Below, in pieces: positions 4,835 to 34,800 of a stretch of 64,000 nt of DNA. The position numbers and the translations under genes are program-made. The notes under the pieces are model-generated. The model was not told where the DNA came from, searched no databases, and saw only the letters and a program-made list of their open reading frames with translations. This DNA comes from Eledone cirrhosa (lineage: Eukaryota). Every line of letters starts with the position of its first letter. Position 1 is the first letter of the stretch. The stretch spans positions 15,748,001 to 15,812,000 of the forward strand of contig OZ024756.1 in the NCBI GenBank assembly GCA_964016885.1, read 5' to 3'.

Positions 4835-4870
4835 ATGGGCCGCTGTCGAACTAGACGACATTACAATAAG
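4835..4870 (+). CDS. NSUN2: NSUN2 coding exon 1 ([12 protein letters not shown])
   Basis: gaaATGg start and AAG|GTAAAT donor, phase 0 matching exon 2. The basic MGR.. N-terminus resembles animal NSUN2 (human MGRRSRGRR). It lies just downstream of a CpG/E-box promoter-like stretch. I found no closer ATG-containing candidate exon. Confidence 0.72.
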
Positions 4871-7800
4871 GTAAATAACCAAATTTCAAATGACTTCTTG
4901 TAACATGTAACAAACCTAAATGTCTTTCTCTCCACAGTTTTCTCCATTATTTTCACTCTAAAATTATTCCATTTTTTTTTGTTAGTTTGTTTTTATACAT
5001 GGGATGTTAATTATTATGACTGGTTGCCTTAACCAGGAATTAATGTAGCTATAACTGCAGTTTTGTGCTACCACCATTCGAGTTAGTTTCCTCAAAACTT
5101 TCTTTAATAATGCATTTTTGTTTTTTTGCAGAAATACATTTTCCATGATGTAAATTACGATTATGTTATATCTATATAATTATTGTATATCGATAGTTCT
5201 GTTTGTACTTTCATTTATTGAAATCTTAAGATTTGTATATGCCTCATGCTAAAAATAAAACTGGGAACAATTTTTTCATCGTGCTTTCTAATTTGATATT
5301 GTTAATAAATTAATATCAATCAGAATAATGTTTTATCTTATAAATTGCAAAAAATGAAATTAAAAAAAATTAACTTATAACCGTAATATACATCATAGAC
5401 AACGTATCTGCAAAATTTCATTAAAAAAATATACATTATTAAAGTTATACCTCCTAATTTCATATTGTTAAATATATCGTCAATCCTGATTGACGATATA
5501 TTTATATATAATCAATATAAAATTGGAAGGCAGAATTTTCTTAATATAAATTTTTAATGAAAATTTGCATTTGAGGGACGACATAAATTATAGTTAAACA
5601 TTGCTGAATTTTTTTTTCAACAAAAGGTTACGGCGAATTGATCGAGTGGGTAGATGGTTGGATTATAAAGGACTCGTTATTTGTTTAGGCTCACTGTGTT
5701 AAGGGTTCACAACTTACCATAGTCAACTTTGTTTTTCATCCTTTCCACGTATATATATATATAATAGAAAAACACTGGTTACGTTCTGAATTCAAACTGC
5801 GCCGTCATTATTATAGAAACACACAAAATTTCAGTTTGAAAAAAAATTTTTTCTTCGTCGCTATCAACTAATCTGACCTCCAACATGCTCGCAATCGACT
5901 CCCCCGGAAAACGTAGGGGTTTGGTGAATTTACCATTTTTTTAGCACTTTTCTGCATGTCCGATCAACCACTGGAACAACCTCAAACAAGAAACAGTTGA
6001 CGCACCCTCAGTCAATATTTTAAAGAGAAAGCTCGAGAAAGAGTGGACCAACCTCCTGCTCAAGTTTAACTGTCGCTTCCCGTATTGATGCCCATCTGGG
6101 AGGCATCGATACTCAGAAGCTGATCATCTCTACCTTACCGGGTACCAAATGAAAGAGATATAAACTTTTTCTGAAAGAAATCGGCTTTTCTTTCCGACCT
6201 GGACAGGGAACGGGCTACGCTTAAAATGCCCAACAGGGGGACAGAAGTCGGATTTAAATTTACTAAAATACAAAATGAAAACGAATTATTTTTTATTGTT
6301 TTTCAGCAAAATATAACATTTCATAAAACGAAAATTCTTTCCTTTGTCATTTTTAAGTTACTATGTATTATTCTTTTAGTTTTTATAGATAGAACTTGAA
6401 GAACAATAATTATATATACTGATTTTTGTGATAAATAATTCCTAAATAATTCGTTAATTTGACCACAAAATATAATATATAACGTTTTTTCAATTATCCG
6501 AATATCTTAAATTCTTTCTTCCGGCTTTTAAATTTTTATATTTTATAAAAGGAAGAGGCTATGTAACCGGTAAGAGTGTCGGACACCATAAGTTGTGGCC
6601 CGAGTTAAGACAATTTGATATCTTCATCATACAATTCTGCGTGTGTTGTCCATTGCTAACGTACGTTACGCTTTAGTTACATACACACGCATCTACTGAG
6701 GGTTAAGAATTTTAGCAGTCAAATATTTTCGAAATTAAGGATTTTGGCAGAAGGTCACGACCTGGGTTACAGATAGTCACTACTTGGGTAAAATGAACTT
6801 CCGGGACCCCGGCTAGAGTTACGTCCCTTTAGGGTTTACCGGTAAAATAAAGCTTTAAAAGCATGGTTGTCTATTTTGCCGGGACCGGCTAGGTAGCCTA
6901 TTTTTTTTAAATATTTTAAAAACTTATTTAAATGTTTACTGATTATCTCTTAAACTTAGTGTTGTGGTTTTTTTTAAATTTTACTTTATTTTTTAACCTA
7001 CGTTTAGTTCCGTTCTCTAGGAATTTATTAAATTTGAATTATATCCGGTTTAACCATTTTTATAGCAACCCATCTAAAACGAGGCTTGCACTATGATACA
7101 AAGCAGTTCATTTTTTAAATACTTCTAACGTAATATAAATTTATTATTATTATCGGTAGAAGGTCGGACGCCATGCTTTGACGCATAGAGTTACGGCCCT
7201 TGCCATTCTGAGTTCAAATCCCGCTGAGGTTAAATTTGCTTTTCATCCTTACGGGGTCGATAAAATAAAGTACTAGTAATGCACTGGGTAATTGCTGGCC
7301 TTGTGCCAAAAGTAGAAACATTATTATTAGTTAGTGTCAGTAGAGCGTCAGGCACCATGCTTTGCCGCATAGTTATGGCCCTTTATATTTTGAATTCAAA
7401 TCCTGTCGTGGTTAACTTTGCCTTTCTCCTTACGGAGTCGATAAAATAAAGCACCAGTAATGTATTGGGGTTAATTGCTGGCCTTGTACCAAAAGTAGAA
7501 ACAATTATTAGTTATTTTGTTTAGTTCGTCAAAGTTCTTTCGTCACATTCTGTGACCTCCTCAATGACTATTCTCTTTTGTGCCTCCTTTTCTTTCTGGG
7601 ATAAATTGTTTTCTCTTTCTATCACTGTCAATCTGGCAGTAATTAATTACAGGAAACTGATTGAATTAACCCTAACCTCAATTATAATTATTGTCTTAAT
7701 TATATTAATTTATGGGAGAAGCATCACTCTTTATTTTCCAAACACCAGATTGAGTCATTTATATTACTAAATCCTTCTAATTATTGGAAGAGGCGATGTA

Positions 7801-31800: not shown

Positions 31801-34800
31801 GTGGGACACCATGCTTTGCGGCACAGATTTACGGCCCTTTACGTACTGGGTTCAAATCTCGCCATGGTTAACTTTGCCTTTCATCCTGACAAGGTCGATA
31901 AAATAAAATACCAGTAACACACTGGGGTTGATGTAATTGACTCCCCGCAAATTGTTGGCTTTGTGCCTAAATCGGAAACGATTATTAATATATATATATA
32001 TGACCGCTGGGTAAAGAAATGCCAGTAGAAGTAAGACGCAATAGAGGAAGACCACGGAAAACATGGGCGGAGGTGATGAAAGCGGACCTCAGATGGCTGA
32101 AGCTCAGGGAGGAGATGACAAGTGGAGAGATGCTGTGCTGAATAGGACCCGTCTCACCCTTGTAAGCAGGGAAAAGTGGACGTAAAAGGATGATGATATA
32201 TGTATATACACACACACACCATATATACTCAAATGTAAACCGAGAAATATGTGACCAAAAAATTGATGGTAGAAGTGGGGAGGTCAAAATTTTGACAATT
32301 TTCATCAACTTCAGTTTCTATGTAAATAATGTTTGGATTTTTGTCCATTTCTCAGCCAAAATTGTGGCGGTTCGCTTATATTTGAGTATATTATAATCAT
32401 TTAACCCTTTAGCATATACATTACTCTATATTTGCTGTTGTATTTTCATGGTAAACACTATATCTCACATATTTCACATATCGAATCTATAAGATTTTGA
32501 GATTATTTATCAGACTGGCAGTATCAGTAGAGTGGCGGACAAAATGCTTTGAAGCCTAGAGTTACGGCCCTTTACGTTACGAGTTCAAATTCTGTCCAGG
32601 TTAGCTTTGCTTTTCATCCTTACACGGTCGATAAAATAAAGTACCAGTAAAGCACTGGGGTCAACTTAATCGACTTTCCCCCTTCCCTTCAAACTGCTGG
32701 CCTTGTGCTTAAAGTAGAAACAATTATTTATTTTGAGAACAATACCTTAACATAAGTATGAGTGGCTGGTTAAGGCCAGAGGGTTAATGTCTGTTTTCCT
32801 CGCTAGCAAGTGTTTGATGGGTTATCACTGATCAGGTCAGTATATAATGGGAGCTACTAACCTCTCAAATGGGCCAGGGGCTGCATCTTGCTTACATATG
32901 TTCTGCTTTCTGTAGAGTGCACTGAATACATTTCATGACACAAATGCTAGGGAGGTTGTCATATCTTAGACACAACAAGAATCCTCTTGACTCTTTATGC
33001 ATATATATTTATATGCATTCACTATACATATATGTTTATATGCATACACAATACATTTACAGAGTGTATCAGAGATATCTATGTATGTAAGTAGATTATA
33101 TATATATATATATTCAGTAGTTAAGCAAATCAAGACCACAAATTCACATAAAAGACAGTCACAGACTATCAACATCAAGTGCAGTTTAATATAAAAAGGG
33201 GATAGTAATGTCAGTTTACAATTGTTTCACTACTCCATATAATGTTTCTGGATCAATCTATGGTAAGAAAGTTATTGATTTGGTGCAGAGAAATGTAAGT
33301 AACATAGAATAATATTATGGAGCAGATCTTCGGAACTTGGGGAAAGATACTGAGATTATTACTATATATAAAGCAGTGTCCGAAAAGAATCGTCAGATTA
33401 GCAACTCCCTAGATGGGGCACCTGTGTATGGTATAAATAAACATTATATATATATATATATATATATATACTCACACCTACCAAAAGAAAAACAAAGGCA
33501 GGTAAAAATATATTTTCATTCATCCCATTCTCTTGCCTTTCTTGCCAGAGAAGTTGTGTTCGTTAAAACAAGTATACTAACTGATTTTAAGTTGATGGTT
33601 GGTTCCTCTCTTTTAACGAATGAATTTAATTGTTCCAACCAGTCTTCCACAGGATTTAGAAAATCCAAGAAAATCCTGTAAGTGTAAATACAGTGTACAT
33701 GCTTCTGTGTTTGTGTAACAACCAAAGAAAGTGTTAACTAAAAGTGTAAAAACACTACATATTTCTGTTTAGTGTAACAGCCTTAGAAAATATTGATTGT
33801 AAGTGTAAAAACAGTGTACATGTTTCTGTTTTAGAGTAACTAGGAAAGTGTTGATTGTAAGTGTAAACAGCAGTGTATGTCTTTCTGTTTTAGGGTAACA
33901 ACCGAGAGAACAAATGGCAACCGAAGGGTTACCAACTCACTGTACGACACAATGAACTTTTTCAGAAATACTACCAAGTAAGTACAACTGACCGTTTTTA
34001 CAATTTTCTCCTCTCGTTCATCATCATCACCATCATTAGTTCCCTTTACTCCCTATGTAGCATTGTGCAACGAGAGATCTTCATCCAACATGATTGCAAG
34101 CCTACTCCCATGCCAGGTCAACTTCCACAGTCCCCGATCAGGTTTTGATAAGTCTGCCTTGCCTCCTACCGAGGAGACCACTAATCATAGGAGTAGTCAA
34201 TGCATGGGGAGATACAGAGAGGATATAAAGATGTGTAAAATCCCAACTGCCTGGCCCCACTTTCAGGATTTTACATATATTTCTCTCTTGCTCTCACAGG
34301 TGGCCTGGATCTCTTGAAAGGCATTCATGCAATGGCAGTCGGTAATGATAATCCCAATTTTCAAAAGGAGACAAAATAGATTGTTCTAATTACAGAGGAA
34401 TCTCCTTGTTAAGCCTCTCCAGTAAAGTCTATGCTAAGTGTCTGGCAAAGAGATGCAGAGAGATTGTCGAGTCCAAGTTAGCAGATGAACAGTGCGGTTT
34501 TCACCCCAGGCACAGCACAGCTGACCAAATATTCACACTGCGGCAAGTCTCAGAGAAATCCTGGGAGTATTACCAAGAGGTGTAATCTTGTTTTTAACAA
34601 AGATTCTTTGATAAAATTATGATTGAAGGTTTTTAAAATAAGATAAACTCTTCAGGCCTTTATTTACCATATCCTAATGAAAGACACTGCCTATAGTTTT
34701 CAACCAATTTTGAGCATAATAAAAATAATGGAATGGTTTAGTAATATAAGTAACTTTCTCATAATCAAGATGGTTTTTGGAACAAAGATTTCTTTCATAA

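Follow-up and report, generated by a model that had tools for sequence, protein, structure and literature searches.

In the cholinergic locus the VAChT and ChAT genes lie on the same strand, and the nematode genes unc-17 and cha-1 share a 5′ exon. ChAT intron 1 contains VAChT as a single-exon frame, and several promoters together with alternative splicing give both mRNAs (PMC3053374). Other inner genes are hitchhiking retrogenes, such as rodent Utp14b in Acsl3 intron 1 and primate UTP14C in ALG11 (PMC5750009); mouse Taf9 uses exons of Ak6 (PMC5408686). Orphan retrogenes, of which 25 human cases have been described (PMC3548309), include the amphioxus SYCP1 retrogene, which is ~3.2 kb long and uses a bidirectional promoter (PMC5803294). 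About 20% of annotated animal retrocopies are intronic (PMC5408686), and 71.5% of Drosophila inner genes on the strand of their host are intronless (PMC5174743). Here we describe a 64,000-nucleotide stretch of Eledone cirrhosa DNA (assembly GCA_964016885.1, contig OZ024756.1, positions 15,748,001 to 15,812,000 of the forward strand; hereafter the window), in which the midasin gene MDN1 lies as one 16.5-kb coding exon between the first two coding exons of NSUN2. The most unusual feature of the locus is the lack of coding introns in this MDN1, which is also the sole copy detected.

MDN1 resembles VAChT in being a single-exon frame wholly within another gene's first intron, although VAChT is about tenfold shorter; the cholinergic pair serves one pathway in one cell type, whereas MDN1 and NSUN2 are unrelated housekeeping genes and the upstream exon bears the start codon of the host. 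With orphan retrogenes MDN1 shares a single coding exon with orthologues elsewhere that appear to be multi-exon, the lack of any parent found, a new place, and a promoter apparently co-opted from a neighbor; it differs from them, and from SYCP1, in the length of its coding exon (16.5 kb vs ~3.2 kb), in lying on the same strand within a host intron rather than beside a neighbor, and in having a host whose first exon is coding. Like the hitchhiking retrogenes, which share host exons or splice sites, it appears to be a retrocopy within a host gene. The UTP14 copies, which also concern a ribosome-biogenesis factor, are testis-restricted and their parent was kept; in contrast, no second MDN1 copy was found here, and this one must therefore serve all tissues. 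The category itself is known from orphan retrogenes and from VAChT in ChAT; what is unusual is the size and the presence of the sole copy of a housekeeping gene as the inner gene. Two housekeeping genes on one transcript, which we propose below, would also be unusual. No size record was found in PMC5470649 and PMC7290577, and therefore we do not call this inner gene the largest known. Both proteins are present in public annotation; no published description of the locus was found in a search that did not extend to supplements and subscription papers. A preliminary description of the window had stated that most nested genes are antisense to their hosts, which is true of 71.3% in Drosophila, although same-strand nesting, at ~29%, is still not rare (PMC5174743).

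The features that make up the nested arrangement are the following.

4835..4870, + strand: NSUN2 coding exon 1, 12 codons with a phase-0 donor (AAG/GTAAAT); likely also the 5′ exon of the MDN1 mRNA.
4871..33893, + strand: NSUN2 intron 1, 29,023 nt, GT-AG.
10958..11057, + strand: probable MDN1 5′ leader behind acceptor 10957/10958, based on the acceptor score and the clip of a read contig (X4 contig 17).
11058..27536, + strand: MDN1 (midasin/Rea1) coding frame, 5,492 amino acids (aa), no intron and no internal stop.
27630..27635, + strand: candidate poly(A) signal, the first AATAAA past the MDN1 stop, among 18 AATAAA/ATTAAA hexamers that precede exon 2; its use is predicted only.
33894..33977, + strand: NSUN2 exon 2, 89% identical to residues 13-39 of Octopus bimaculoides NSUN2; acceptor score 7.5.
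35138..57820, + strand: NSUN2 exons 3-22, which with exons 1-2 give an open 876-aa frame.

The NSUN2 model, built by tblastn of homologues and then refined, has 22 GT-AG-bounded exons and 21 introns; its product was 79.4% identical to O. vulgaris NSUN2 over 874 aa, and the one exon sampled among exons 3-22 had a single match in the genome. Exon 2 follows a phase-0 acceptor and contains no ATG so that, as the preliminary description had recognized, it needs an upstream exon ending in phase 0. The exon proposed for this role, at 4835-4870, was borne out. Its 12 residues are identical (12/12) to the N-termini of NSUN2 from O. bimaculoides (XP_014789893.1, XP_052831165.1) and O. vulgaris (CAI9737702.1), and in the octopus orthologues these residues run directly into exon-2 sequence. 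When all six frames of the window were scanned with the O. bimaculoides 12-mer, it scored 71 at 4835 and no more than 25 elsewhere; three NSUN2 N-termini all gave their best score at 4835 (71, 55, and 48; runners-up 25, 31, and 31). A scan outside the MDN1 frame (4400-10900 and 27536-33890) for candidate first exons, from an ATG to a phase-0 donor, yielded 15, of which that at 4835 scored 71 against the orthologue N-termini and the other 14 scored 5 or less, including any 3′ of MDN1 in 27536-33890, where an alternative first exon might have lain. The DNA from 4640 to 4960 matched the genome only once. The exon-1 donor scored 10.2 (training range 6.2-12.5) with a splice-site matrix built from the other NSUN2 introns, and the ATG context is strong, with A at −3 and G at +4. 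A similar NSUN2 start was present in two further proteins encoded on transcript-sized contigs of 2.5-2.7 kb (P0052, P0006), one of which clusters with Sepia pharaonis NSUN2. Given the identity of exon 1 to its orthologues, the single copy of the exon-1 stretch, and the weakness of the rival first-exon candidates, we are almost certain that the MDN1 coding frame lies between NSUN2 exons 1 and 2 on the same strand, as had been claimed. The NSUN2 mRNA of E. cirrhosa would thus be expected to join 4870 to 33894. It follows from the order of the NSUN2 exons that transcription must cross the whole MDN1 frame; the earlier statement that NSUN2 pre-mRNA reads through MDN1 and its poly(A)-type hexamers is a matter of geometry for any mRNA with this N-terminus. 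Dispersed repeats make up 28% of intron 1 before MDN1 and 45% after it.

Two differences from the Octopus proteins were seen within NSUN2 itself. The exon encoding an acidic insert (49981-50416, +) exceeds its Octopus counterparts by ~35-40 residues, with only ~42% identity to them, and the modeled 3′ part (57534-57820, +) stops a few residues past a conserved EVD, where the Octopus proteins have a different 11-residue tail.

It is very improbable that the region is misjoined in the assembly, or that NSUN2 has its first exon downstream of MDN1, with nothing nested. The O. sinensis NSUN2 model, which has a different 13-residue N-terminus and lacks this exon 1, speaks against the layout and for such an explanation, as does the fact that among the contigs listed, from reads aligned to 1-15000 (a range that ends before exon 2, in a listing filled by repeats that leaves out 2,254 joints and 5,849 loose ends), none bridges exon 1 to MDN1 or exon 2. 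The O. sinensis N-terminus, however, matched nothing in the window (at most 25 of 76), and that model is cut short at 580 aa. Evidence against a misjoin or a downstream exon consists of the single-copy, orthologue-identical exon 1, the low scores of the other 14 candidates, the matching N-terminus on the transcript-sized contigs, and the O. bimaculoides MDN1 and NSUN2 accessions (XP_014789895.1 and XP_014789893.1) being only two apart.

The MDN1 open frame extends from 10929 to 27533 (+), with its first ATG at 11058, and the encoded protein is 87% identical to O. sinensis and O. bimaculoides midasin in full-length, gap-poor alignments; for both MDN1 and NSUN2 of the window the nearest relatives are octopus proteins. 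Six Walker A motifs lie at residues 312, 651, 1055, 1363, 1745, and 2060, and the Walker B pattern was matched in four of the six modules, the same four as in mammalian MDN1. Pfam matches were to AAA_5 (E 3.5e-129) and the midasin lid families; at the C-terminus an acidic tract precedes a MIDAS DxSxS motif at 5285, and the VWA_2 match there was weak (E 6e-4, under the curated cut-off). With its six AAA modules, long linker, acidic region, and C-terminal MIDAS, the protein is like known midasin/Rea1 and is an ordinary orthologue in the tree. No unusual feature of the protein was found; it differs from known midasin only in gene structure and position.

Other MDN1 genes and other giant genes were compared for introns. 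Mouse Mdn1 has 102 exons (PMC5809388). Bivalve MDN1 isoforms (Mytilus twice, Mercenaria, Ostrea) differ by 1-2 internal residues, as would arise from splice-site shifts, indicating coding introns at a few places in bivalve MDN1, though they provide no exon map. The absence of introns appears specific to MDN1, as dyneins, UBR4, and NSUN2 in the same genome are normally split: none of the 63 Dynein_C matches fell in an open frame longer than 260 aa, and 10 of 13 UBR4 matches lay in frames that did not exceed 152 aa. Of the UBR4 matches in open frames of 152 aa or less. Searches of the 3.0-Gb genome with MDN1 C-terminal, AAA, and N-terminal queries (3, 11, and 11 best candidates scored) matched only the frame in the window; because the searches score best candidates only, decayed remnants could escape them. 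Two incidental observations arose from this comparison. A 1,754-codon open frame touching two UBR4 matches (G000:C20:16699621-16704765) may be a large exon, an element, or a repeat, and two dynein C-terminal matches of equal score lie inverted ~6 kb apart (G000:C19:6751272-6762301), possibly reflecting a recent inverted duplication or an assembly duplicate.

The loss of introns, the relocation, and the lack of a detectable parent together form the orphan-retrogene pattern, and we consider it highly probable that MDN1 arose in this way. Alternatively, MDN1 might have lost its introns in place, by cDNA recombination, and DNA rearrangement during the reshuffling of coleoid genomes might then have moved it, or trapped it between the first two NSUN2 exons. 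This seems improbable. It is compatible with the comparison, which holds no intermediate taxon, and with the difficulty of making a 16.5-kb full-length retrocopy, as new copies are often 5′-truncated (PMC5408686); nor has a hallmark of retroposition been shown, neither a poly(A) tract nor a target-site duplication having been searched for. On the other hand, it requires two rare events instead of one, the loss of all introns is most simply achieved by retroposition (PMC3548309), and introns were kept in the other giant genes of the genome.

The recommended comparison with other molluscs was carried out at the level of linkage, judged by record length and not by coordinates. In O. bimaculoides (47,890,971) and O. 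sinensis (55,351,117) the records that carry MDN1 and NSUN2 were equal in length, whereas they differed in all seven non-cephalopod molluscs in which both were seen (Gigantopelta, Argopecten, Ylistrum, Pinctada, and three Mytilus species). In a tree of 19 MDN1 AAA regions (1,040 columns), the window protein formed one clade with support 1.0 together with Octopus, Argonauta, and two further proteins (66-67% identical). One of these two was called at full length on a 474-kb contig, a hint that the gene is intronless in a sister coleoid lineage. The retroposition is probably of coleoid age. A search for shorter MDN1 pieces gave five matches and no named cephalopod, so that the linkage data hold no squid, cuttlefish, or Nautilus; in metagenome scans for cephalopod MDN1 contigs, none of 247 and 190 pattern matches was confirmed. 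In O. vulgaris there was a correct-looking NSUN2 record and no midasin among the 120 matches listed or the four cluster members; a nested single-exon MDN1 may have been dropped there in annotation.

We then asked how MDN1 obtains its 5′ end. Among 36 AGs in 10700-11200, the acceptor at 10957/10958 scored 10.3 and no other exceeded 3.2; it ranked 6th of 323 in 4900-11057. Read data consisted of four runs of one study, their kind not on record, three of which were aligned to 1-15000. Runs X1 and X3 are one sample, maybe the assembly's own, and therefore are not independent evidence. In run X4, contig 17 (488 nt, depth 3.4) aligned from 10956 with 13 unaligned letters ahead of it, and because exon 1 ends in AAG a join from exon 1 would align from exactly 10956. 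The X4/X1 depth ratio was 1.26 in the exon-1 bin, 0.29-1.0 in the MDN1 bins, and never above 0.22 in the 21 remaining bins, and X4 had no cover in 2001-2500; these ratios and gaps are poor measures, used only for our guess that X4 is RNA. A clip at the best local acceptor indicates a probable spliced MDN1 leader and does not show the source of that leader. Strong donors with a fitting end in 4330-10900 were limited to 4870 (10.2) and 9177 (12.5), with four others at 4.1 or less; exon 1 is favored as the leader since 9177 sits inside a dispersed repeat. The preliminary description of a complete MDN1 gene nested in NSUN2 therefore stands for the coding exon, which is certainly nested, and has to be amended for the 5′ leader, which appears to be spliced in from upstream. 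It had overlooked the lack of coding introns, the single copy, and the ubiquitin hydrolase gene described below.

The region in which transcription would begin contains two further features.

4001..8000, no strand: CpG-rich island (CpG observed/expected), a likely bidirectional promoter region.
4292..4318, − strand: probable first coding exon of a ubiquitin hydrolase gene (USP10-like), nine codons and then a GT donor; assignment tentative.

The CpG observed/expected ratio was 1.02-1.57 in seven successive 500-nt bins (4001-7500) and 0.75 in the next. Around the MDN1 start it was 0.20-0.28, and elsewhere in the intron only isolated bins came near 1 (26001, 30501); with no island beside it, a transcription start adjoining the MDN1 frame is unlikely. 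The ubiquitin hydrolase gene is head-to-head with NSUN2, starting 517 nt from the NSUN2 ATG and leaving the window at its left end, and given its apparent start at 4318 (−) the island appears bidirectional. Its putative next exon, ~9.85 kb left of the window, is phase-compatible and carries an FGDF motif, from which we presume the gene to be USP10-like; downstream exons match Pfam UCH (E 1.4e-5 and 8.3e-10). The gene (L003-L006) is multi-exon, with a low-complexity exon of ~550 codons in L004. A supposed exon of it at 1984-2142 was dropped, having neither an acceptor nor a Pfam match.

That MDN1 and NSUN2 form one transcription unit, as first proposed, is likely, on the evidence of the single CpG island and the one contig clipped at the 10958 acceptor; an MDN1-specific start within the island is the less likely alternative. 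On balance we lean toward a model in which an MDN1 retrocopy serves the NSUN2 unit as a giant alternative last exon, a description that, if exon 1 is shared, fits MDN1 better than that of a complete nested gene. The main rival is a first exon of MDN1's own: the retrogene origin would be the same, MDN1 having its own promoter and a non-coding first exon spliced to 10958, both within intron 1, where the CpG-rich 5-8 kb would be the most likely place, with NSUN2 polymerases running through two separate tandem units. We judge this unlikely, though a serious competitor. The CpG ratio stays above 1 up to 7500, and most of 4871-7150 is unique sequence; the clip at 10956 suits any exon ending in (A/G/T)AG, and MDN1 translation would face no upstream frame. 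The two RefSeq accessions for one O. sinensis MDN1 protein suggest untranslated-region variants. Precedents are amphioxus SYCP1, which acquired a new 5′ untranslated region in this manner (PMC5803294), and rat VAChT, which according to a title cited in PMC3053374 has its own promoters within the ChAT intron. In 5-8 kb, however, every donor whose end fits is weak (4.1 or less vs 10.2 for 4870).

According to the shared-exon model, a full-length reverse-transcribed MDN1 copy would have landed in NSUN2 intron 1, likely in a coleoid ancestor, and this intronless copy would have replaced the intron-rich original. Polymerase would start in the CpG island and each pre-mRNA would yield one product, MDN1 or NSUN2. 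Splicing of donor 4870 to acceptor 10958, with cleavage after 27.5 kb, would produce MDN1 mRNA; splicing of the same donor to acceptor 33894, with 29 kb including all of MDN1 discarded, would produce NSUN2 mRNA, for which the donor must bypass both the 10958 acceptor and the 27630 hexamer. A 16.7-kb last exon would not be recognized until its poly(A) signal has been transcribed (terminal-exon definition), and therefore the head start of the MDN1 acceptor over exon 2 would be only ~6 kb, letting both products form. Because the join of exon 1 to 10958 does not keep the reading frame, an upstream frame of 23 codons would run from the NSUN2 ATG on the MDN1 mRNA, with its stop at 10991-10993, and MDN1 would be made by re-initiation 64 nt past that stop. 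Further ATGs lie at 10966 and 10987 inside the upstream frame, and the latter opens a frame that extends to 11076, across the MDN1 start; translation of the upstream frame would carry ribosomes past this out-of-frame ATG. An in-frame fusion of exon 1 to MDN1 was rejected, as the 10958 acceptor is out of frame, and neither the 18 cephalopod-type MDN1 records listed nor the full-length alignment relatives included one that starts like NSUN2. We likewise rejected a specialized RNA pairing element that would loop MDN1 out, the inverted matches across MDN1 being weak or overlapping dispersed repeats; inverted repeat copies might still pair.

Several observations count against the retrogene and shared-exon proposals. 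The exon-2 acceptor is weaker than that of MDN1 (7.5 vs 10.3) and is transcribed 23 kb later, so that NSUN2 output needs a bias that the model does not explain. Because of its strong context, the NSUN2 ATG would hinder MDN1 translation if re-initiation were inefficient; moreover, the CpG island reaches 3 kb into intron 1, where a separate MDN1 start is possible, and these two facts together keep the separate-promoter alternative alive. The read evidence for a spliced leader comes from one contig at depth 3.4 from a run presumed to be RNA, its 13 upstream letters are known by number alone, and 8 of 20 NSUN2 exon ends would likewise produce a clip at 10956. The poly(A) tract and target-site duplication that would mark retroposition would not be expected to survive in so old an insertion. 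Three of the 13 UBR4 matches sit in long open frames (535 and 1754 aa), MDN1 intronlessness beyond E. cirrhosa derives from the single full-length call on the 474-kb contig, and other species show linkage of MDN1 and NSUN2, which is not proof of nesting.

The remainder of the window contains, tail-to-tail with NSUN2, an exon with ankyrin repeats and a SOCS box (60985-61692, −; ASB-type protein), and a non-LTR (long terminal repeat) retroelement fragment (62382-62834, −; zf-RVT, E 1e-4, under the cut-off). Intronic minisatellite arrays at 37960-38590, 44420-45230, 53290-53700, and 55570-55900 cause spurious long open frames.

It is conceivable, if rather doubtful, that the arrangement is coleoid-wide: that all coleoids make midasin from a 16.5-kb orphan retrogene that is an alternative last exon of NSUN2, with a single splice/poly(A) choice dividing the transcripts between midasin, the pre-60S motor, and NSUN2, the tRNA methyltransferase, the NSUN2 start codon gating MDN1 translation, and the island driving the USP10-like gene as well. 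A full-length RNA-derived replacement of a ~100-exon, 16.5-kb gene would extend the size of retrogene replacement well past that of SYCP1 (~3.2 kb). The locus also poses the question of how splicing to an acceptor 29 kb away can prevail over one just 6 kb beyond exon 1, and over a poly(A) region, often enough to supply NSUN2 while the sole MDN1 is still made. Gene models at this locus are error-prone, as illustrated by the O. sinensis NSUN2 model without exon 1, and CRISPR or antisense reagents directed at NSUN2 or MDN1 in cephalopods may affect both genes.

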